A DNA stretch of 64,000 nucleotides, taken from the NCBI GenBank assembly GCA_012401045.1, contig GCA_012401045.1_4704.1, one strand, 5' to 3'. Position 1 is the stretch's first letter; every line of letters starts with the position of its first letter. The position numbers and the translations under genes are program-made. Shown in pieces: positions 9,559-48,285 of the stretch. The notes under the pieces are model-generated. The model made no database searches, was not told where the DNA came from, and saw only the letters and a program-made list of their open reading frames with translations. Source of the DNA: a phage.

Positions 9559-9600
9559 CGCACGTACCTCTTTGAATCTATTAATAAATTTTCTTTACTC

Positions 9601-9623
9601 ACGTAAGTAATATAGCCGTGAAA
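9601..9623 (-). promoter_or_regulatory. candidate phage early promoter, TATATTAC core on the minus strand
   Basis: One of four near-identical copies of a 23-nt motif, about 50 nt upstream of the ATG at 9558. Confidence 0.45.
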
Positions 9624-14770: not shown

Positions 14771-17032
14771 TTACAATTCAAAATCTTCATCGATAACACG
14801 CTGGGTAAGCACTTTGTCGCTGAAGAACTCCACCTTGCGCTGATGGTATTTACGGTGCGCTTCGATAGAAGTACATACCAGATACCAGAACGTTGGCGTC
14901 ATTCCTTCAAACTTTCCTTTCAGCTGACGCAGTCGCCCCAACACCTGAATGTTACCGGTTCGTGACCCCATCGCTAATGTCATGAACGTCATCACCAAGT
15001 CAGGAAGGTCGATACCTGTACCTGCCGATTTCACCGTTGTAACGCTAATATCGTTATCCAGCAAGACCATGAAATCTTCTTCAGCGGTATAAGGACCGAT
15101 CTCTAACTCAGGGATACGTTCACTGAGATAATGCGACAACGACTTACACATATCGACGGTTGCACAATACACCAGCATCTTCATACCTTCCTGATACTGG
15201 TTCATGAAACCCTTGATAATAACGGTATAGATGAAGTTAAAATACGCGAGTTTGAGTTGCTTGTTCTTCATGATAGACTGTTCGAATATCGTGTGTGAAT
15301 AAGCTCCACCAAACCCTTTGTATCTGACTTTATCTGTACTGCGTAGTCGGTACGTTACCGCATTTACCGCAATGTATTTCTTGTATTCGCCTTTCGCATA
15401 ACGAGCTTCTTTCGGATACATCAAATACAGCATCTGTTCGATAAACGGATCATCGGATACCGCTGTTGCCGACAGATAAATGATTTCCGGAATATTGGCG
15501 TAACACTTGACCTTAAACAAGAAATGCAATGCTTCGTGACACTCGTCATGAATCAGCAAACCTATGCCGGTCTTTTCCCAAAACTCAGCGGGATGAAAGG
15601 CATATGGCGCAACGCAGTTATTCTTCTCGTAGTCCGCAATATAACGTTGGAACATGTTCAAGGAGAACAATGCGATTTTAAAGTCGAGTTCACCTTGTTC
15701 AACCAAGGTTTGAAACTCCAACATACTGTAACGAGGAATGTCGGGATGCGGTGGATCCTCCTTAGCGTTCCCGCGTATCTCGATAACGTCCCCTGGTTCC
15801 ATCCCGAAGAAGTTCAGCAGTGAGCTTCGCCAACCTGGCATATACCGTGGAGAAAGTATAATGCCTGTGCGCACACCCCGTCTGAACACGATTTCCTGCG
15901 ACATCGCGGTGTTATGCGTGACGATGTGGTCTTTAATAACATAAAGGCTTTCGTCATTGTCCACCGTGATGCAACGTGCTTTCGCTTTCACTGTCGGTAC
16001 GATGCTATCAATCGCTAAACCAGGAAGCCGGTTAACGGGGAGATCGTCTGGAACCTCAATGTCGTCAGGAATAAGCTTACGCAAATCGGAATGATAAATT
16101 AATGTCTCCATCGTGTAACTATCGATGGGGCATTTATACGCGATTCCTCCTAACTGATAAGCCAACTCCCAAACCTTGGCCGTTATCTGCGAATCGACGG
16201 TTCTGACCGCAAGGTGAGCTTGCCCGTTTCTGATTCTCAGTTCACAGCGACCTTTGATTACCGCCTTAAATTCCTCGATACCGACGAGTTCTTTCGGTTC
16301 GTAAAGTCGGATTCTTATTGGACGAGATCGAGCAGGTCTGTCGTAAAGACATTCCATGATTTCGTCCGTGCTGAGAACCTTATCGGGGTCAGTACACCGC
16401 CAGAGATGATCGCCACACGCTTCAACCATCCTACCGTCTTCAAAGAAGATAGCATGAAGCTGAATATCGTCATGATCAAATATAGCGGTTACGTTCGTCG
16501 GTAACCCATCCGCACCAACAACCTGATCCCCTACCTGAAGCTCACCAATCGGCTTCCAACCTCCTGGAACCTTCACGGGTGTGGTAAGCCGTACCGCTTT
16601 CCCTGACCCCGTTTGAGCGGTGTTTAGGCTCATTCTGAAGGGGGTATCCTTACCCCCGTCCATGTACTCCAACCATTCTTGCTGATCTTCACGCCATGGA
16701 AACTTCCATTTCTTTACGAACTCCACTTCTTTACCTGGTACCGGATCGTGATAGACGATTTCCAACCACTCTTTTCGTATCCCTCGGGAAAAGATAAAAT
16801 CCAAAAACGATTTCAACTGTTCACGGAGTAAGTATACCTCGCTATAATCGCTTCTTGCCGCGGCATACGTGTTTATGGTATCGGTAACCATTCTCCGTGT
16901 ACGAGGGTCACGCCGTTTCCTCAGATGCAAACAACGGTCTCGAAGGTAATGGCCGATAAGATGGGCAAATCGAAGTCCGTATCCGCTCAGCCTCATGCCA
17001 TGCGAGAAGACGTCGATACGAGCTAACTTCAT
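14771..17032 (-). CDS. SF2 DExH-box helicase whose P-loop is interrupted by an intein
   Basis: AQTGSGK then intein then T (restores Walker A); LIHDECHE Walker B; QVLGRLRQ motif VI; start ATG overlaps the TGA of the upstream gene. Confidence 0.6.
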   Translation of the reverse strand: MKLARIDVFSHGMRLSGYGLRFAHLIGHYLRDRCLHLRKRRDPRTRRMVTDTINTYAAARSDYSEVYLLREQLKSFLDFIFSRGIRKEWLEIVYHDPVPGKEVEFVKKWKFPWREDQQEWLEYMDGGKDTPFRMSLNTAQTGSGKAVRLTTPVKVPGGWKPIGELQVGDQVVGADGLPTNVTAIFDHDDIQLHAIFFEDGRMVEACGDHLWRCTDPDKVLSTDEIMECLYDRPARSRPIRIRLYEPKELVGIEEFKAVIKGRCELRIRNGQAHLAVRTVDSQITAKVWELAYQLGGIAYKCPIDSYTMETLIYHSDLRKLIPDDIEVPDDLPVNRLPGLAIDSIVPTVKAKARCITVDNDESLYVIKDHIVTHNTAMSQEIVFRRGVRTGIILSPRYMPGWRSSLLNFFGMEPGDVIEIRGNAKEDPPHPDIPRYSMLEFQTLVEQGELDFKIALFSLNMFQRYIADYEKNNCVAPYAFHPAEFWEKTGIGLLIHDECHEALHFLFKVKCYANIPEIIYLSATAVSDDPFIEQMLYLMYPKEARYAKGEYKKYIAVNAVTYRLRSTDKVRYKGFGGAYSHTIFEQSIMKNKQLKLAYFNFIYTVIIKGFMNQYQEGMKMLVYCATVDMCKSLSHYLSERIPELEIGPYTAEEDFMVLLDNDISVTTVKSAGTGIDLPDLVMTFMTLAMGSRTGNIQVLGRLRQLKGKFEGMTPTFWYLVCTSIEAHRKYHQRKVEFFSDKVLTQRVIDEDFEL
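15911..16597 (-). mobile_element. intein, 229 aa, class-3-like (Ala1, Trp/Cys/Thr triplet)
   Basis: Hint blocks GWKPIGELQVGDQVVGADG, CITVDNDESLYVIKDHIVTHN then Thr; inserted between Lys and Thr of GSGKT. Confidence 0.6.
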
Positions 17033-28285: not shown

Positions 28286-28310
28286 CACAAAGGTAATATA
28301 AGCGTGAATA
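28286..28310 (-). promoter_or_regulatory. candidate phage early promoter, TATATTAC core on the minus strand
   Basis: CACAAAGGTAATATAAGCGTGAATA on plus strand; second copy of the conserved motif. Confidence 0.45.
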
Positions 28311-33566: not shown

Positions 33567-33590
33567 CACTTAAGTAATATAGCCGTGAAA
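33567..33590 (-). promoter_or_regulatory. candidate phage early promoter, TATATTAC core on the minus strand
   Basis: CACTTAAGTAATATAGCCGTGAAA on plus strand; about 95 nt upstream of the ATG at 33480. Confidence 0.45.
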
Positions 33591-34479: not shown

Positions 34480-35118
34480 TTAACCTAATTTACCACCGGC
34501 GATGTTGGTGAAATCTTCGCCATCAGGAACTTGCAGTAGGATACGTGCCATGTCCCAGTTGGTTAATGTAATTGCTTTATCATCGATACTCAGTTCTGGT
34601 AGGTCGAGTTCATGATCATCAAACTCGTAGGAAATACTCCACGTTTCATCTGTTTTAGGATCGGTTATCAACACACCGTCTGTTACACGCATGTAGTCCG
34701 GGTGCAGTTCATTACTGAATGTGCTGAACGGATCGGTGTAACATTCAGCATATCCCTCGATCTGCTGACGCTGTGCCTTCGTACGTAATTCAGGGCACGC
34801 CATGATCAGTTGTCGAGATATACCGTTTGCGGCACGGAAGTCTTCCACGGTGTTACATGGCATAACCACATCGTCATGGAAGATGTTCTCCGATTGTCTC
34901 AACAGCGTCTTACGGAGTTCAGCATAGTTTATCTGATTGAATGCGTCGAACGTTGCTAACGATTCAGCGTAAAAATGCTTTACGTGTTCGCTTGCGCCGC
35001 CGAGGCTATTCATCAACTTGTGACCGTACTCCATGAAGCTTTTATCGAGACCGGAGGACATTTCTCCGAACCTCAGTGCACGATAACTGTCTCGTCCACC
35101 TGTAAATATTTGCGCCAT
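34480..35118 (-). CDS. hypothetical protein (212 aa)
   Basis: ORF track; AGGAGG 9 nt upstream of ATG 35118. Confidence 0.45.
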   Translation of the reverse strand: MAQIFTGGRDSYRALRFGEMSSGLDKSFMEYGHKLMNSLGGASEHVKHFYAESLATFDAFNQINYAELRKTLLRQSENIFHDDVVMPCNTVEDFRAANGISRQLIMACPELRTKAQRQQIEGYAECYTDPFSTFSNELHPDYMRVTDGVLITDPKTDETWSISYEFDDHELDLPELSIDDKAITLTNWDMARILLQVPDGEDFTNIAGGKLG

Positions 35119-35133
35119 TACAGGCGTCCTCCT

Positions 35134-35370
35134 TTAGCAATGGTTGTTAGTTGCTTCTATTTCATCAAGATACGGTTCTACGTCATCGCCCTCCACGAAT
35201 TCGTTGAACCAACAGTCAATGGTAGAAATAACCGGCGACTGGTGTTCACATTTCTTAGATACCTTAAAAGGTACGTTATTATCCATCATACCGAGTTCGG
35301 GTCGAAAACGCCCGAAATGTTTCGCAGTCCAAATGTCTGGGACGATATGGTTGTTCATCGTAGTGTTCAG
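35134..35370 (-). CDS. RNA polymerase beta-prime N-terminal subunit, distal exon or separately translated piece
   Basis: TTMNNHIVPD...ELGMMDNNVP aligns to E. coli beta-prime QMAVHVPL...ALMMSTNNIL, the segment that follows DFDGD; 5' boundary uncertain (35367, 35370 or 35379). Confidence 0.45.
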   Translation of the reverse strand: MNTTMNNHIVPDIWTAKHFGRFRPELGMMDNNVPFKVSKKCEHQSPVISTIDCWFNEFVEGDDVEPYLDEIEATNNHC

Positions 35371-35713
35371 CATGAGTCGCTACCTCATACCCGCAGCTTT
35401 ACCTGCAGCTTCCGGTGTTACCGGAATGTCCAGAATATATCTTATCCATATTCCAAATGGAACGTAGGACTTCCGCGCTGGATCTCGCTTGAGACCACGT
35501 ATTCGTTGAACGTTCTCCTGAACGGAGCTTCGCTGCTGATCGAACATTGTCACGTACGGTAGGCATCCCCGAAGGGATTGTCATTGAAGCCGCGTACATC
35601 CGCTACCTTGTTTCTACCTTATCGGTTCCTCTTACGAGGCGTAGCAGCCTTAGCCCTTCCCAGCAATTCACGGAATCCAAGCTCTTCCTTTCGGAAGGCA
35701 GGGCCTATGATTA
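35371..35713 (-). ncRNA. second group I-like intron or degenerate intron spacer
   Basis: Minus-strand Q-like ATCAGCAGCGAAGC (35527-35540), R-like GTTCAACGAATACG (35498-35511), S-like AAGATATATTC (35433-35443); GNRA and UUCG-capped hairpins; no P1 guide found. Confidence 0.4.
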
Positions 35714-35726
35714 AGCGTCACCGTCG
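35714..35726 (-). CDS. 13-nt micro-exon CGACGGTGACGCT supplying the DGD of the catalytic motif
   Basis: Joined to exon 1 it reads NADF-DGD-A; its first four bases are complementary to the GUCG that sits directly 5' of the intron-1 guide sequence. Confidence 0.45.
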
Positions 35727-36103
35727 CTGTTTATCGACTATATCTTCATCCTCGTTGCGAGGAGTCTCCCGTTTTGGTCTGTGTTTAACAGAGCCTACTC
35801 TACTCGACATCGCGTCTTTCGATAGTCTGTGAGCACACATCTTAACAAACATTCGTGGATTCCTAAACAGGTGAATGTTCTTGTTGAGATGCTTCGCTGC
35901 GGATTATTCCCGTCCTACCTCTTTTACCGTACCCAGTTCATTACGCTGGCCCTCATCTATGTCACCACGATGAGTTGGTGTGTAGTCCGATTACAGAAAC
36001 TTCCCGTCAATTAGAGAGCTTTAACTACGTTCCTGTTACCAGAAACCCGACTCCGACGGCATCAATAAATCAACATAAGTTATTGATTTAATTGAAAAAA
36101 CTG
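35727..36103 (-). ncRNA. group I self-splicing intron, 377 nt, no internal ORF
   Basis: Minus-strand P AATTGACGGGAAG (36000-36012), Q AATCCGCAGC (35896-35905), R CACAGACTA (35823-35831), S AAGATATAGTC (35736-35746); guide GAGUCGG (36047-36053) pairs exon end CCGACUU with terminal U-G; ends in G at 35727. Confidence 0.7.
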
Positions 36104-37359
36104 AAGTCGGCATTATAACCTTTGAGGATCATCACGCTTAACCCGATGGTGTTATCCTGCGGATCGCGTTTAACCTTGGTGATTTCAAGACATTGGTTAC
36201 TGCTTCGGTCAAGTGATGGGTTTCGAACAAAGCCGCACACAATCCCATCGAACGGTGTATCAGCAATAAGCTCATCGTGCAGCTCGCTCATCATCGGATG
36301 ATAATTACGGACATGTTCCGCAACGAACGCACGCGCTGCTCTCGGTGAATAACCACGATGGAATAACTTGGATTGGATATGTTCTTTATTGGTTAAAGTA
36401 AATGGTGCGTATGGGAAATGCAGATGATAATAACGATGGTTCGCTGTTATCGAACTGATTACGGTACGCGTGGTGAATGGATGTAATGTACCTAATATGT
36501 TTTTACGTGTAATACCTTTCTTCTTACCGATGAACTCATCGAAAATCGCCGCGTGGTATTGCAGTAGCTTCAATTGCACTTTCGCCATCCAGTTTTCTTT
36601 CTTTCTGGCGCTCAAAGGTGTTGTTGGATGATAGATACTGTTCAACGTACCGATAGCATCGATCGCACCTTCCATTTTGCTATCCGCATAACGACCGGTT
36701 GGCGTATTCTCGATAACGAACATCATGGCCGCAGGAAAGCTGATATACTGACTGAAGAACTTATCACGATGGATACGGATGAATTCTCGTAGCGTGTCAA
36801 CTTTCTCCGTGTTCTTCGGTCCACGTAACGTCGGTCCTTTATACAAGATCTCCATGATGCGATCGAAGTTCTGTATAAAACTATTTACACCGCGACGTAT
36901 CCCGAATACATCGAATTGCTGCTCCAGATAGTTCTTGAGTTCGATGGGTCGTTTTACATTTGGACGGTAACTGGCATCAATGAGCCACGTCATCGTTTCA
37001 AAGCTTTTGATATTCAACTCGCTTGCCAGCACGAGATGGACCAACGGGTTAATGAACGCATCGATTCCTTCAGGAACACGCGCCCAAACCGTCGAACGAA
37101 TCTCCTGTTCTGCCGGGTAGGTCACAACCGTTTTACAGTTTGGACACACCGTGCCGAGTAGCTCACCACGATTGTAGAAACCACAACCACACTGTGGTGT
37201 GATATCCAGCGTATCGCTGGAGTAAACACGGGTGATAAAACTGTTTAATTTCTTCTTCTCTTCGACGACTTTTGTATCGTAATCATTCAACAAAATCGGC
37301 GTAAAAGGAAGTTCTGCGAGCTGTCTATCGAAACTCACGATATCGAGCATGATGGCCAT
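36104..37359 (-). CDS. RNA polymerase beta-prime N-terminal subunit, exon 1
   Basis: N-terminal Zn ribbon QCGCG...CPNC; ends GYNADF matching E. coli AYNADFDGD; unspliced frame gives NADFSFFN then stop at 36088. Confidence 0.7.
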
Positions 37360-37401
37360 GGGGTATCTCCTACAAATGAAAAAGAACGTTAGGACGTATA
37401 A

Positions 37402-37425
37402 GGGAGGGAGGTTGCCCTCCCTCCC
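37402..37425 (-). terminator. GGGAGGGAGG-TTGC-CCTCCCTCCC hairpin followed by TTATACG on the coding strand
   Basis: 10-bp perfect inverted repeat between the 631-aa gene and the beta-prime gene. Confidence 0.4.
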
Positions 37426-37451
37426 GTCAGATTACATCGAACGTTCTTCCA

Positions 37452-39347
37452 TTAGAACAGATTGAATGCCCCACCCATGTTGTTAACGCCAACATTCGGA
37501 CGATCGCTACGTGCGTAGATGTTACCGGAGATGTTACCCAGACCACGAGCACGTGCTGCCATGTTACCACGAACAGCGGTACCTGCCAGATGCTGGATGT
37601 TCTCAGGACGGATGGTGAAGCCAGCATCAGCAGCGGCTTCGATCAGCGCCTGCAGTGCTAACGGATCGAAGTCGTAACGCATTGCCCAGCCGGTTTGTTC
37701 CCAGCTACCAGACAGAACACGATCGATGATTTCGTGACGAGCGACAACACGCTGAGACATCGTCATATCGGTACGGTCGAAGCTGTCTTCCCAAGCTTCT
37801 ACGGTATCCGGGTTAGTGATGTTCATCATGTACAGATCGTCCATATCACGAATATCGTGACGGTGACCATCCTGGTGGTTGTAGTGACCCAGCGGGATAC
37901 GGTTACCGGTAGCGTAGACCAGCGGTTGGCCGTATTGATATTTCTTGCTGAAGCAACCCAGGGTAACATCATCGAACGCACGGAAGAGGGCTTTGTAACC
38001 TTCGGAGATTTCACGGACTTCACCTTCAACTTTGCCCGTATAGATCTTCTCAGCCGCCGGGATCATACGCAGCAGCCAGCTGTACTCACCTTCTTCCGGT
38101 ACGTCGATAGAAATCAGCAGAGACGGATACAGTACCTGTTGCAGGAACTTGTAAATCTGCTCGTTGGTTTGAGTAGACAGATCCAGCGGTGCGGTAACTT
38201 CCGGATCCAGTACCATCGCCAGAGCACCCGGGTTATGCGGACCAATACCACGGGCAGCGTTGCTGATTAAAGACTGTGCCCACGCCATACCGCTGTTCAG
38301 CGTAGCGATGGTGCCAATCAGACCCAACACGAAAGTGTTCGGTGTGAACGCATCCAGCTCCAGCGGGTAAGCGCTGGTCATCACGTAACGCGGCTGGTAT
38401 TGTACAGTCGGCGGTACCGGATAACCGTTAACCAGAACAGGGCCTTGGTTGAAGGTCGGGTTCTGCGGGCTGTAAGTCAGGTCAATGTAACCGGTGGTGG
38501 CGACCAGACGCTGTTGACTATCGTAATCGCTCATCGCTTGACGGATGCGGTTAGAGATAGTTACAGTGATGTCAGAACGCACAGGGTTACCAACAATATC
38601 GCTGTCCTGCATACCGCTGGTGTTGTACTGAACGCTGCTGATTGGCTGATCGCTTGCCATCATGCCCAGGTTGAACTGCGGCAGACCCAGTTTATCACCG
38701 AGACGGATTTCGATCGCGGTTTGGATTGCGTTATCTGCAGCAGACAGCAGGGTGGTTGCCAGATGCGCAGATTCAGCGGTGATTTCATTGGTCACCACAG
38801 CCAGACCAGCGATACGAACAGTACCGTTAGACTTACCGCCAATAGCTGAGTACATTGCCGCCATGACTTCGTTGATGAACGTACCGTTCAGGTTATCAAC
38901 CCAGGTACGCGGTACCAGAATGTTACCATGCGGACCTTGTTCTTCACGACGCGGCAGCGGAGCCAGACCAGCAACCAGCGGAAGCACATAACCAAAGAAG
39001 TGGTTATGGTCACCAACTTTTGCACCACTCATAACGACCAGGGTCGGATACGGTACGCTGTACTGGTTCGGGTCAACCGCAACAAAGATGAAGTCGTTTT
39101 TGAACTGGGTATCTTCCAGATATTTCTCCATCAGACGACGGAGATTCAGTACCTGCTCGGAGCCAGTATTACGGCTAATACGACGGCTCAGTGTACGGTT
39201 GATCGTACGCATCGTATGAGTTACTTTAGGCTGGCCAGCAAAATCTGCAGCGGTTTCCAGCGCCTCATCAGCACGTTGTGCGGTGCGGGTTTCAGCTGCA
39301 CGAATTTCTACATTATCGTTACCGTTATTACGTACGTCTAAGCCCAT
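37452..39347 (-). CDS. candidate chimallin (phage nucleus shell protein), 631 aa
   Basis: Size matches chimallin; sits immediately upstream of the beta-prime N-terminal gene as phiKZ gp54 does; early-promoter-like motif upstream; not confirmed by sequence similarity. Confidence 0.45.
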   Translation of the reverse strand: MGLDVRNNGNDNVEIRAAETRTAQRADEALETAADFAGQPKVTHTMRTINRTLSRRISRNTGSEQVLNLRRLMEKYLEDTQFKNDFIFVAVDPNQYSVPYPTLVVMSGAKVGDHNHFFGYVLPLVAGLAPLPRREEQGPHGNILVPRTWVDNLNGTFINEVMAAMYSAIGGKSNGTVRIAGLAVVTNEITAESAHLATTLLSAADNAIQTAIEIRLGDKLGLPQFNLGMMASDQPISSVQYNTSGMQDSDIVGNPVRSDITVTISNRIRQAMSDYDSQQRLVATTGYIDLTYSPQNPTFNQGPVLVNGYPVPPTVQYQPRYVMTSAYPLELDAFTPNTFVLGLIGTIATLNSGMAWAQSLISNAARGIGPHNPGALAMVLDPEVTAPLDLSTQTNEQIYKFLQQVLYPSLLISIDVPEEGEYSWLLRMIPAAEKIYTGKVEGEVREISEGYKALFRAFDDVTLGCFSKKYQYGQPLVYATGNRIPLGHYNHQDGHRHDIRDMDDLYMMNITNPDTVEAWEDSFDRTDMTMSQRVVARHEIIDRVLSGSWEQTGWAMRYDFDPLALQALIEAAADAGFTIRPENIQHLAGTAVRGNMAARARGLGNISGNIYARSDRPNVGVNNMGGAFNLF

Positions 39348-39412
39348 TTGGGATTCCTCTTTTCTTAAACTTTATTAAATGACGTCATTGAATCAGCTTC
39401 TACTCGCTCATT

Positions 39413-39436
39413 CACCTAGGTAATATAACCCTGAAA
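39413..39436 (-). promoter_or_regulatory. candidate phage early promoter, TATATTAC core on the minus strand
   Basis: CACCTAGGTAATATAACCCTGAAA on plus strand; about 75 nt upstream of the ATG at 39347. Confidence 0.45.
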
Positions 39437-39601
39437 TTTTTTTCAATATTGGTGTAACCACATTGAACGATATAAACCCCTAGGCGAACGCTGCCGAGAA
39501 GCAACATTCTTTCTACATATAATCAGGATATGTCTGTAAACTTTTACTTCTCTTATTGAGAGTAAAGTCATATCCGTTTACTACCTTCTTACGGAGTTCG
39601 T

Positions 39602-40696
39602 ATGTTTCGTGTTTTAAATAACCTCCCGCGAACATCATCGGGTGTGCAGCCCGTCCCTCAGAAAGACTATCTAATACGCGAAGTTCAAAGAAACCTACAG
39701 ACAATCCAGAACCACTATCAAGGTTTTACCTTCGCGGTTCAGAGCGATCACATCCTTGCGTTACTGCTCGCACAGCTCCCTATGAGATACGACATCTCAG
39801 TACAAACTTACTACGATATGATTCTCGATCTTACTCCAGAATTGGGTAATCGTGTTAAGTTGACAACATCAAGATACGCGGGTAAGTTATTCGACGGTGC
39901 TTTCTATCCGGGATTGCACGAAGCTATTATCGCAACCGGTGAAAGTCGTCTTATTTCACGTGACGTTCTTGACAACTGGCGTAATTGGTCGCCGGTTAGA
40001 ATCGTGACACACCCATACGCAAATCTTCGTTACATTCCTCTTCACCGAAAGCAGGTTGAAGAAGGACGAGGTTTTGCGGTCATTATGGTTGATGTACCTT
40101 TATTAGCACTACAGTATCGAATGTGGTCTTTGGTCATGGGTCATAACGTCGACGGTAAATGGGTGGTTAAAGAACCGGTTACAAGCTTCCTTGCGAGTTT
40201 TCCGTTGGTCAACGCATTATATTCACACAACGATGTTGTTATACGCAATCGTTGTTTGTGGGTATCTCCGGCTAAGAATCCACTCAAATCACCAATTTAC
40301 GTTAACGACCTTGATAACGTATTCAGCCAAGTCGTTCTGTCCGTACAGCATCATTTATTACGAAGAAGACGAAGCTACACCGATATGCTTAAACAGATAC
40401 CGAGTTTATACGGGGATCAGTACCAAGCAACCCGAATGGGTTACACCGTCGATCTTCGACAAACCCGATGGGCAAGGGATCTGGGCTGTCTGTCGTTATG
40501 GCAACAACTCGTCACACTACAAAACGTATCTGAAAGCGTCGGGTTCAGCAGCCAGATCGATAACGACCTGTACCGTGCTGCCGACCGTAGTCTAAAAGAA
40601 GGTAACTGGGAGTCCTCTCCGTTACCTGGCGATTTAAGACGTGAAGTTATCGCACAGGTTGCCGACCTCTTAAAAATTCTTCCCGCTGGTGCATAA
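39602..40696 (+). CDS. hypothetical protein (364 aa)
   Basis: ORF track; one of the few plus-strand genes. Confidence 0.5.
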   Translation: MFRVLNNLPRTSSGVQPVPQKDYLIREVQRNLQTIQNHYQGFTFAVQSDHILALLLAQLPMRYDISVQTYYDMILDLTPELGNRVKLTTSRYAGKLFDGAFYPGLHEAIIATGESRLISRDVLDNWRNWSPVRIVTHPYANLRYIPLHRKQVEEGRGFAVIMVDVPLLALQYRMWSLVMGHNVDGKWVVKEPVTSFLASFPLVNALYSHNDVVIRNRCLWVSPAKNPLKSPIYVNDLDNVFSQVVLSVQHHLLRRRRSYTDMLKQIPSLYGDQYQATRMGYTVDLRQTRWARDLGCLSLWQQLVTLQNVSESVGFSSQIDNDLYRAADRSLKEGNWESSPLPGDLRREVIAQVADLLKILPAGA

Positions 40697-40699
40697 TAA

Positions 40700-40757
40700 C
40701 CTCCCTCCTCCCTTGCATCCTCCCAACCCGTAAGGGAAGGGAGGATGGGGTGGTGGG
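40700..40757 (+). terminator. extended pyrimidine/purine hairpin followed by TTATG, likely bidirectional
   Basis: CATCCTCCC/GGGAGGATG core with outer CCTCC/GGTGG pairing in the convergent gap between 39602..40696 and 40763..42916. Confidence 0.45.
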
Positions 40758-40762
40758 TTATG

Positions 40763-42916
40763 TTACTCTGCGGTTTCTTGCTTCGGTAAATAACTTGCTG
40801 CGATGTCTTGGGCTAACAATGTATTGTTTTTATTCGAGATGAAAATACCATAACTTTCCATTAACGCGTAATACGAACGCACGAGCGTAGAGATCAATCG
40901 ACGAATATCCATACCTTGAATAAAGATATCAGGAAGCCCGGAGGCTTCGATCACCGGTAATGGTATCGTTAAGTTGCTTATCGTTTTCTTATCGTTACGT
41001 ACAATCCAATCACGGAAACGTTGTTGTAACCCTTTATCCTCCCAGGAATCAATCCAATCGTTAAGAAGCGTTTTGTTCTTCGTCGCCAACGGCACACGAA
41101 CCCCAACATAGGGTGGTTCAGGGCAATGGCCGTACGATTGAGCAAACACCTCTTCCCACATATCGTAAGACTGTTTCGTTACTGCAACATGCGGTTTCAC
41201 TTTAACACGCGTTAAGAAATCAGGATCACCACGTTTCATAGACTCAACGATTTCGTTTTCTAACGAGATAATATCGTCAAGAACCAATCGAATGCTGATC
41301 TTCTCGTTACGTAACAGCTTATCCATGATACCACACATCATGCGTTCAACACGTTTGACGATCATTTTTGGTGCTGACGCATCACGCATAACCGGACCTT
41401 TCAATTCCAGCTTCGGTGGATTGATAGGAACCCCCTCACGCATGGTCATGTAACCGTAATAGTTTTTACCCATCGAGGTTAACGACAGAATCAAGAACAT
41501 ATATTCGTTCTTCATTTCCATCACGTACATATGCTCTTTCGCCACACCGATATTACCAGAACACATCGCCATCAGATGAACCGTAATCTGCGTAACCAGA
41601 TAGATAAGCGTGTTTGCTAAGCGCGTCGAAACTGGATTGATCTCCATATTTCCAAATCGCCACTGAACCCACTCCTGGCAGGTAAACACCGTCGAGTCGG
41701 TATCAGACAACACACCCACTTCACGGATTGCTGATGGGAAAGCATAAACACCAGCCGGTTGGTTCTCGGTACGCCAGAACGCCATAATCAAATCAGCATA
41801 GCTTTGAATACGCTGTAGCATTAATTTTGTCGTTGCTGCAGTAAGACGATAACCAAGCTCATTTCCTTTTTCTAGCGCTACGTAAATCGCTTCCCCATTC
41901 AAGAACTCCGTACATTGTGCTGTAATCCAAGCGACCGTGTTGTTATCCATGGAAGCAATAATGGCTTTAGCCTCTTCCATCGTTTCAACAGGTTCGGATG
42001 CCAGCTCGCATAACGAATCAAGAAAATCTCGAACAAATTCAGGATTAAGCTCACGTAACGAGTACAGGTTATTGCTGTACATGTAGCAGGCACGTTCCAA
42101 CGGTGTTAAACCAGTAATTAACTCCCGGATAGTCAGTTCTTTCTCTGGGTCGAAAGTATATCGATGCAAGCATTTCGATACGTTAGCCCAAACCTCTTCC
42201 GGCGTAGGGTAATGTAGTTTGTATTTTACCATTACCTGTTCAATGGCTTTACGATCGCTGTTGCGGACAATACTCACGATGTTTTCAATTGCGATATCAC
42301 AATCGTAATAATGGAAATTGCCCGCAAGGAAGCGTTCGTTGTTCGCATTGGCTGAACCTGAAGCACAGCGACACGTTGTCGTTAAACTTGGATGCGCAAT
42401 TGGATTATAAAAAGGGTTAAACTTGGACGCCTGGGTTCCTGACAAACTGTTGTTATCTAACTTGGTGTTGGTTTGTCGTTTATCGTGTAACTCAGCTTCA
42501 TCTTTACGTCCGTGTGCTTGCGCTATCGACATTTGTTTCTTTTGTTTCTTACGCAACTTACCGTTTTCAACCGCAAAGTCGCTTAGCACACTGGAACGTG
42601 TTTCACGTGGATAACAGTTAGCCCACACCGGCGTGATAATTAAATTATTTTCTTTAATATCATTGAAGTATTGGCTGAACTTGATGACTTCTTTTTCTCG
42701 ATTTCCTTCGGTGCGCTGTGTTAATACAAGGCAGTCGGGATCAACCATCCCGTATTTTCCACCAGGACGAACCGTATCAAGGACAAACTGCAACGCTTCC
42801 TGCTGTGATATCCCACGCATGCGCATTAAGAACAGGGTATAATCCTGTACCGCTTCTTTGGTCATATCCAACGTACGGCCATATCCGTTTTCATCGTAAA
42901 AGAACGGATTTTCCAT
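40763..42916 (-). CDS. large hypothetical protein (717 aa), possible polymerase-like enzyme
   Basis: GGAGGA upstream of ATG 42916; single LSDTDS motif resembling a polymerase Mg-binding motif, other polymerase motifs not found. Confidence 0.45.
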   Translation of the reverse strand: MENPFFYDENGYGRTLDMTKEAVQDYTLFLMRMRGISQQEALQFVLDTVRPGGKYGMVDPDCLVLTQRTEGNREKEVIKFSQYFNDIKENNLIITPVWANCYPRETRSSVLSDFAVENGKLRKKQKKQMSIAQAHGRKDEAELHDKRQTNTKLDNNSLSGTQASKFNPFYNPIAHPSLTTTCRCASGSANANNERFLAGNFHYYDCDIAIENIVSIVRNSDRKAIEQVMVKYKLHYPTPEEVWANVSKCLHRYTFDPEKELTIRELITGLTPLERACYMYSNNLYSLRELNPEFVRDFLDSLCELASEPVETMEEAKAIIASMDNNTVAWITAQCTEFLNGEAIYVALEKGNELGYRLTAATTKLMLQRIQSYADLIMAFWRTENQPAGVYAFPSAIREVGVLSDTDSTVFTCQEWVQWRFGNMEINPVSTRLANTLIYLVTQITVHLMAMCSGNIGVAKEHMYVMEMKNEYMFLILSLTSMGKNYYGYMTMREGVPINPPKLELKGPVMRDASAPKMIVKRVERMMCGIMDKLLRNEKISIRLVLDDIISLENEIVESMKRGDPDFLTRVKVKPHVAVTKQSYDMWEEVFAQSYGHCPEPPYVGVRVPLATKNKTLLNDWIDSWEDKGLQQRFRDWIVRNDKKTISNLTIPLPVIEASGLPDIFIQGMDIRRLISTLVRSYYALMESYGIFISNKNNTLLAQDIAASYLPKQETAE

Positions 42917-47304: not shown

Positions 47305-48285
47305 TTAGAAAAGCAAGAAACCGCTATTCTTCGCTTCCGCTACAGTTTCGTCACCAACTTTCGGTGCCTGTTGACGCGCGTTACGATGTTCGATGTAACG
47401 TTTCGCTTCGTCAGCGATTTGTTTGATAATACCCCCTAAACGATCGGTACTTAAAACAAACGACGTCGCTTCACGAATTGGGCTGCTTTCAGGCACAAAA
47501 CCATCGCAGCTGTAAATAGCGCTAACGCCCATGACTTTTGTCGCGTCTTTCGGATAAAGCGTACAGAAAGCAATCGGGCTATCGTTCTCTTTCGTCCAAT
47601 CGTATCCCATGAACGTATTCAGTTCGGTGATCGTTGGTTCCAAACCGGTAACACGTGGATGGTTTAAGAAGTTTTCCAGGTCGGCGCTGTCAAGACGACG
47701 GTTCTCGCCAGAAAACAGAACACAAAGCTGGCTAATAACAACCTGCACGTCCAGGTTGACATCCTGCTCCGATTTCCCATTTTCGCCATTCATGTGATAG
47801 CTAACAATCACTGGACGTTTCAACCCTTCTGCAGCCGCCATCAGTCCTTTGAAGGTGCGATCGGCGTTGATCGTTTGACGCTCATCATCGAACGAGGCAA
47901 CGATGCAACACACCACACGTTCACCACGTTCCAGCAGGTTAGCAACCAACGCAGGACCTGCAACAGAACCTGAACCACCGCTCAGACTAAAGACCACGAT
48001 ATTAAATTTACCTGGCGTATGCTTATTCAGAATACCCGGGATTTGTGAACAGATCAGTTCAGCGTTCTCATCACGCTTCTTACCAGAACCGTCTAACTCA
48101 CGACCGGCTGCATCTTTAAAGATGTAAATATGATCGTCACCCAGTGTGCTATCGCGTAGGTTAGCGCGGCTGGTATCGACATACGTCATGCTGTGTAATC
48201 CTTTCGCGACTTCGCCTTCAAATGCTGAGCCGATTTCGCCACCACAACCACCGACAGCCCAAATATGTACTTGGTTCTCTTGCAT
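47305..48285 (-). CDS. phuZ: PhuZ-type phage tubulin/FtsZ-family GTPase
   Basis: N-terminal IWAVGGCGGEIG and tubulin signature SLSGGSGSVAGP, matching the PhuZ YSLGGGSGSVLGP region; AGGAG upstream of ATG. Confidence 0.7.
   Translation of the reverse strand: MQENQVHIWAVGGCGGEIGSAFEGEVAKGLHSMTYVDTSRANLRDSTLGDDHIYIFKDAAGRELDGSGKKRDENAELICSQIPGILNKHTPGKFNIVVFSLSGGSGSVAGPALVANLLERGERVVCCIVASFDDERQTINADRTFKGLMAAAEGLKRPVIVSYHMNGENGKSEQDVNLDVQVVISQLCVLFSGENRRLDSADLENFLNHPRVTGLEPTITELNTFMGYDWTKENDSPIAFCTLYPKDATKVMGVSAIYSCDGFVPESSPIREATSFVLSTDRLGGIIKQIADEAKRYIEHRNARQQAPKVGDETVAEAKNSGFLLF

Follow-up and report, generated by a model that had tools for sequence, protein, structure and literature searches.

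The 64,000-nucleotide (nt) stretch of phage DNA analysed in this work (contig GCA_012401045.1_4704.1 of GenBank assembly GCA_012401045.1; in the following, the window) carries at 37452..39347, on the minus strand, an open reading frame (ORF) whose product is almost certainly chimallin (ChmA), the main protein of the nuclear shell in a Goslarvirus. Judged by its sequence, the source belongs to Goslarvirus; it is a Chimalliviridae jumbo phage of E. coli/Salmonella, ~97% identical to vB_EcoM_Goslar (Goslar). Chimallin is already known: its sequence, structure and function are published, and the exact allele of the window is already in public assemblies. The novelty lies not in chimallin but in the neighbouring gene for the beta-prime N-terminal subunit (beta-prime-N) of the non-virion RNA polymerase (nvRNAP), whose NADFDGD loop we regard, with reasonable but not high confidence, as a Goslarvirus hot spot for group I introns that compete with one another. 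The value of the chimallin result is a correct annotation: it ties the window to a nucleus-forming Goslarvirus and gives a reference point for the early gene pair of chimallin followed by beta-prime-N.

The chimallin gene and its ribosome-binding site are located as follows:

37452..39347, minus strand: chmA coding sequence, chimallin / nuclear shell protein; ATG start, 631 amino acids (aa), 69.6 kDa, isoelectric point 5.2 (ORF listing and computed properties)
39355..39361, minus strand: Shine-Dalgarno sequence AAGAGGA, strong, 7 nt 5' of the chmA ATG (read from the sequence)

These are exactly the coordinates at which a preliminary description, made from the letters of the DNA alone, had put a chimallin candidate of 631 aa and roughly 70 kDa, and comparison with the chimallins of Goslar and 201phi2-1 bears the proposal out. 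A phmmer search of the Protein Data Bank (PDB) aligned residues 1-631 to residues 4-634 of 7sqt_A, 'Chimallin' of Goslar, with E=0, 1422 bits and 6 mismatches; 625 of the 631 residues (99%) are identical over the full length. PhuN of PhiPA3 (8fne, E 1e-20) and the chimallin gp105 of 201phi2-1 (7sqq, E 6e-11) were also matched over the full length, but far more weakly. The sole Pfam match, PF25677 Chimallin_Phikzvirus, covers residues 20-596 with 95.6 bits (curated gathering cut-off 27 bits), and the sole PHROG match is PHROG 4795, 'nuclear shell protein' (E 5e-55). The Goslar gene at the syntenic position, YP_009820873.1, is likewise named 'nuclear shell protein'; it is the accession expressed by Laughlin et al. 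as Goslar chimallin gp189, with cryo-electron microscopy structures at 2.3-4.2 Å (PMC9365700). The N- and C-termini, which had been described as disordered-looking, exceed the core in polarity, with a mean hydropathy of -0.91 in residues 1-60 and of -0.17 in the core, in agreement with the flexible tails described for chimallin.

By size alone, ~70 kDa, the product could also be a major capsid, tail sheath or other virion structural protein, an alternative which the preliminary description had kept in view, and the neighbour on the opposite strand (39602..40696, plus strand) does have a weak PHROG match to 'virion structural protein', but it is a separate gene. For the ORF itself no capsid, tail sheath or other virion family was found in Pfam, PHROGs or the PDB; the only families that came up in Pfam and PHROGs were chimallin / nuclear shell, the full-length match is chimallin, and the annotation of Goslar puts its tail sheath (gp218) and terminase at a distance of over 16 kb. 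We consider the chance that the ORF encodes a virion protein to be negligible. Only marginally less improbable is that it is a decaying or repurposed homologue, for example a non-assembling paralogue, to which the annotation of chimallin could not be transferred. Such a reading could point to the six amino-acid differences from the characterised Goslar protein, which are R81Q, D84N, A167S, A177V, Y455F and L474Q (Goslar residue, position, window residue). All six, however, fall within residues 81-474, and residues 1-80 and 475-631 are those of Goslar. The two genes differ at 21 nt (14 codons synonymous, 6 non-synonymous), with a ratio of non-synonymous to synonymous substitution rates (dN/dS) of ~0.14; chmA is an intact, full-length ORF under purifying selection. 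The ribosome-binding site is unchanged, and the single difference in the 254 nt upstream of the gene leaves the promoter motif as it is in Goslar. No second chimallin-like gene came up in the window. Moreover, the identical 631-aa protein has been retained on at least 12 independent public contigs, always with the same flanking genes, among them the 238,589-bp contig of GCA_043942905.1. So many carriers are consistent with the recent growth of Goslarvirus, a genus which finds in bacterial assemblies have enlarged from 1 genome to 237 (PMC12768965). The identification of the ORF as chimallin met with no contrary sequence evidence in the present data.

If the window protein behaves like its homologues, chmA would be transcribed very early and its product would be abundant, as judged from work on Goslar and 201phi2-1 (PMC9365700, PMC12908238, PMC10541120). 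By homology, ChmA would assemble into C4 tetramers, in which the N-terminal segment would join the protomers, two C-terminal segments would extend into adjacent tetramers, and the tetramers would form a flexible square lattice around the replicating phage DNA (PMC9365700, PMC12908238). Published work suggests that such a lattice would keep out ribosomes and host nucleases and would uncouple transcription from translation. A square-lattice shell around phage DNA was seen in Goslar-infected cells by cryo-electron tomography (PMC9365700), and ChmA is reported to be essential in Goslar (PMC10541120). In the lattice of 201phi2-1 chimallin the N-terminal segment (NTS) comprises residues 48-61 and the C-terminal segments CTS1 and CTS2 residues 590-611 and 622-631; near-identical interactions were described for Goslar, where the NTS and CTS segments were resolved in contact with neighbouring protomers (PMC9365700). 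In the window protein the regions that hold these segments do not differ from those of Goslar. Since both terminal tails are identical to those of Goslar chimallin, the same assembly mechanism is to be expected.

Starting 92 nt past the chimallin stop codon there is a 423-aa ORF (36088..37359, minus strand), which matches phiKZ gp55, the nvRNAP beta-prime N-terminal subunit (7ogp_A), with E 5e-62 and also matches PHROG 2987. The expectation that chimallin would stand just upstream of beta-prime-N on the same strand was thus right, with the refinement that the shared strand is the minus strand and that beta-prime-N appears to be split by introns rather than being a simple 423-aa ORF. The gene order noted for phiKZ (gp54-gp55) was also found in related phages, with gp053 followed by gp054 in PhiPA3, and with gp105, gp106 and gp107 in 201phi2-1, where one small ORF lies between the two genes. 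The predicted parts of the window gene are:

36104..37359, minus strand: beta-prime-N exon 1, ending ...AAU GCC GAC UU
35727..36103, minus strand: group I intron 1 of 377 nt, which interrupts the Phe codon of NADFDGD and lacks an endonuclease ORF
35714..35726, minus strand: micro-exon of 13 nt, C GAC GGU GAC GCU, which supplies the end of the Phe codon and the catalytic-loop codons for Asp-Gly-Asp-Ala
35359..35713, minus strand: group I intron 2, 355 nt, from a local Rfam match and exon logic
35134..35358, minus strand: beta-prime-N exon 3, within a 79-aa ORF (hypothetical gp185 in Goslar)

Intron 1, which is also annotated in Goslar, matches Rfam family RF00028 with 49.3 bits (E 2e-10, 35727..36094), and intron 2 with 24.4 bits (local E 3e-4, ~35410..35729, conserved core segments present), both scores being lower than the gathering score of 50 bits. 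The Rfam scan of the whole window detected intron 1 only and missed intron 2, which came up in a local search. As intron 2 is below the gathering score, its assignment leans mainly on exon logic and on natural intron-less alleles. By inspection, the P1 helix of intron 1 can be formed by exon CCGACUU and GAGUCGG (36047-36053), the splice-site pair being U.G, and P10 by CCGUCG (36054-36059) and CGACGG of exon 2; the 3' end of the intron is G. A covariance match, a U.G pair of the 5' exon in P1, a 3' G and in-frame exons, all features of group I introns, were found for the beta-prime-N elements, in the case of intron 2 mainly via exon logic.

The 79-aa ORF, homologue of Goslar gp185, aligns to residues 443-495 of phiKZ gp55 in 7ogp_A. 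Splicing the three exons in silico gave a product of 497 aa, which aligned without gaps to residues 41-495 of 7ogp_A, across ...NADFDGDAMNNHIVPD..., and scored 255 bits against this chain, compared with 213 bits for the unspliced form. The peptide across the predicted junction would include NADFDGDAMNNH. A 423-aa product, resulting from read-through past intron 1 (NADF-DGDA-stop), was rejected because the 79-aa ORF continues the gp55 homology, because a second intron lies between the two, and because DGDA-MNNH is contiguous in sibling phages. The true beta-prime-N product is probably a 497-aa subunit encoded by three exons, which unites the 423-aa ORF with most of the 79-aa ORF (Goslar gp247 and gp185). 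The Goslar RefSeq record lists beta-prime-N as a 423-aa product and a separate 79-aa 'hypothetical protein', with one intron marked. In related phages the catalytic-loop region of beta-prime-N is uninterrupted. Goslar and the window phage share intron 1 but differ at its 3' end, where Goslar has a 1065-nt insertion with an HNH homing-endonuclease gene (gp186; L001 10667..11731); the window, with the insertion point at 35728/35731, has the endonuclease-free form. The deposited beta-prime-N chain of phiKZ combines PHIKZ055 with PHIKZ056.1; this points to just one interruption there, close to the same loop, in contrast to the two introns of the window.

It is interesting to compare this arrangement with that of close relatives. 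Among 12 Goslarvirus sequences, comprising the window, Goslar (99% chimallin identity) and 10 contigs with identical chimallin (L012-L021), the NADFDGD site occurs in five allele types with 1, 2 or 3 group I introns, inserted at five positions within ~10 codons. The micro-exons measure 11-26 nt, and the introns occur with or without HNH endonuclease genes:

Type A (window, L019): two introns around the 13-nt micro-exon
Type B (Goslar, L018): type A plus the HNH gene
Type C (L012, L015, L017, L020): a different intron of 366 nt within the Tyr codon; a 26-nt exon separates it from the 355-nt second intron of the window type
Type D (L013, L014, L021): a single 350-nt intron after Asn-Ala; DFDGDAMNNH contiguous
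Type E (L016, 8704..10860): three introns, the first with an HNH ORF, the middle one with 55.8 bits (above gathering); micro-exons of 11 nt and 15 nt

The type D alleles read GAC GCA ATG AAC without interruption and provide natural intron-less junctions for both introns of the window. For their own, relocated intron no convincing P1 or P10 pairing was seen by eye. When spliced in silico, all five allele types yield G-Y-N-A-D-F-D-G-D-A-M-N-N. We found no paper describing the beta-prime-N intron arrangement or the allele series. Behind the polymorphism there may be a conflict between co-infecting phages that is fought with intron endonucleases, as has been shown for PhiPA3 gp210 (PMC11620839). 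If all introns are spliced, an essential early enzyme would depend on up to three ribozyme reactions. The natural allele series could serve for studies of intron homing and of competition between phages within the phage nucleus.

Upstream of chmA, where the preliminary description had noted an early-promoter-like motif, there is one of four copies of a 23-nt element:

39413..39435, minus strand: Chimalliviridae early-promoter motif TTCAGGGTTATATTACCTAGGTG, 23 nt, with an A-rich tract directly 5'; identical in Goslar
9600..9622, 28286..28308, 33567..33589 and 39413..39435, all minus strand: the four copies of the 23-nt motif, 48-93 nt upstream of long minus-strand ORFs

The genes behind the four copies are homologues of Goslar gp159, gp175 and gp182, and chimallin. 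The minus-strand sequence upstream of chimallin reads ...GAAAAAAATTTCAGGGTTATATTACCTAGGTGAA..., and the TATATTAC core (39420..39427, minus strand) ends 72 nt 5' of the chmA ATG. By itself the 8-mer TATATTAC shows no enrichment in the window (4 sites, 2.15 expected); significance is reached by the longer 23-nt motif only. All four sites share the 23-nt consensus TTCAsGsyTATATTACyTnnGTG, for which 0.01-0.36 matches are expected by chance, a statistic that is partly circular, these four sites having been the source of the pattern; for this reason independent support matters. A promoter consensus, TTTRARR_BTATATTACDWHDGTG, has been published for 201phi2-1, and predicted promoters also for OBP and N1M2; our motif agrees with the consensus for these three phages at many positions and holds the phiKZ element TATATTAC (PMC7058600, Table 2). 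The same motif precedes 201phi2-1 gp105, at a distance of 75 nt. In the region 35000-40800, sigma-70 promoters and intrinsic terminators were no more frequent than in shuffled sequences, thus a host-type promoter is unsupported. We accept the motif as early-promoter-like because of the match to the 201phi2-1 consensus, the same placement before gp105 and the negative outcome of the sigma-70 scan. In the phiKZ group, motifs of the TATATTAC type are used by the virion RNA polymerase. We infer that the injected virion RNA polymerase would use the promoter of chmA; it weighs against this assignment that it rests on the phiKZ-group literature and on predicted consensus sequences (PMC7058600).

With respect to known chimallin loci, the window is closest to that of Goslar ChmA (gp189; YP_009820873.1 / HOV27_gp246; PDB 7SQT, 7SQU, 7SQV), with which it shares the length of 631 aa, genomic position, promoter and downstream gene; the difference consists of the six substitutions. 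201phi2-1 gp105 (PDB 7SQQ-7SQS) is similar in family, length, promoter-motif distance and in having beta-prime-N downstream, but its chimallin sequence is distant, there is an extra small ORF before beta-prime-N, and its beta-prime-N is intron-less. The identity of the Goslar and 201phi2-1 chimallins is 19.3% (PMC9365700). PhiPA3 gp053 (PhuN, PDB 8FNE) and phiKZ gp54 share the chimallin family, and the PhiPA3 sequence is again distant.

The 92-nt gap between the chmA stop and the beta-prime-N start contains a structure that is unannotated in Goslar:

37402..37425, minus strand: GC-rich hairpin with a perfect 10-bp stem, GGGAGGGAGG/CCUCCCUCCC, a 4-nt loop and no U tract

The extended fold (37385..37445) has a predicted stability of -33 kcal/mol (z -5.6), and 0 of 200 shuffled sequences were as stable. 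The hairpin may terminate transcription in part or stabilise the mRNA; it is a matter of speculation that it might raise the level of chmA mRNA above that of the polymerase-subunit mRNA.

The whole window is collinear with positions 133180-197551 of Goslar, with ~96.8% identity; for 36000-40000 of the window the DNA identity to Goslar is 98.6%. Beside chmA the window has a set of genes characteristic of nucleus-forming phages, namely nvRNAP beta-prime-N, PhuZ and a PF20286 polymerase, and more RNA polymerase subunits are found in the syntenic Goslar annotation:

47305..48285, minus strand: PhuZ tubulin gene; 9pm9_C E 4e-220, phiKZ gp39 (3zbp) E 8e-29, 201phi2-1 PhuZ (3r4v) E 6e-15; 'tubulin PhuZ' in Goslar
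40763..42916, minus strand: divergent family B DNA polymerase; Pfam PF20286, 682 bits; syntenic Goslar gene 'DNA polymerase'

The PhuZ gene had been placed about 8 kb from chimallin, and the distance to the chimallin ATG is 7958 nt. The Goslar DNA polymerase gene is weakly similar to 201phi2-1p083, and the family is common to Goslar and 201phi2-1.

The window departs from Goslar by insertion, deletion or replacement at three places. A search for tRNA genes in the window found none. A superfamily 2 (SF2) helicase ORF (14771..17032, minus strand) encodes 753 aa, compared with 524 aa in Goslar (gp164). It contains an in-frame insert of 229 aa (15911..16597, minus strand), absent from Goslar gp164, which interrupts the Walker A motif (GSGK|T). 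The first residue of the insert is Ala and the last two are His-Asn, followed by Thr, and it matches the DnaB mini-inteins 6rix and 6bs8 in the PDB with E ~1e-10; a Hint domain was not detected in it by Pfam. On the strength of the PDB sequence matches and the terminal residues we take the insert as a probable intein, whose Ala1 start is reminiscent of the class 3 type. The segment 12496..13369, which has no blastn match to Goslar, corresponds to the C-terminal part of a BspA-type leucine-rich-repeat gene (Goslar gp161), and its flanks are the most divergent parts of the window, with 91.6-95.4% identity to Goslar.

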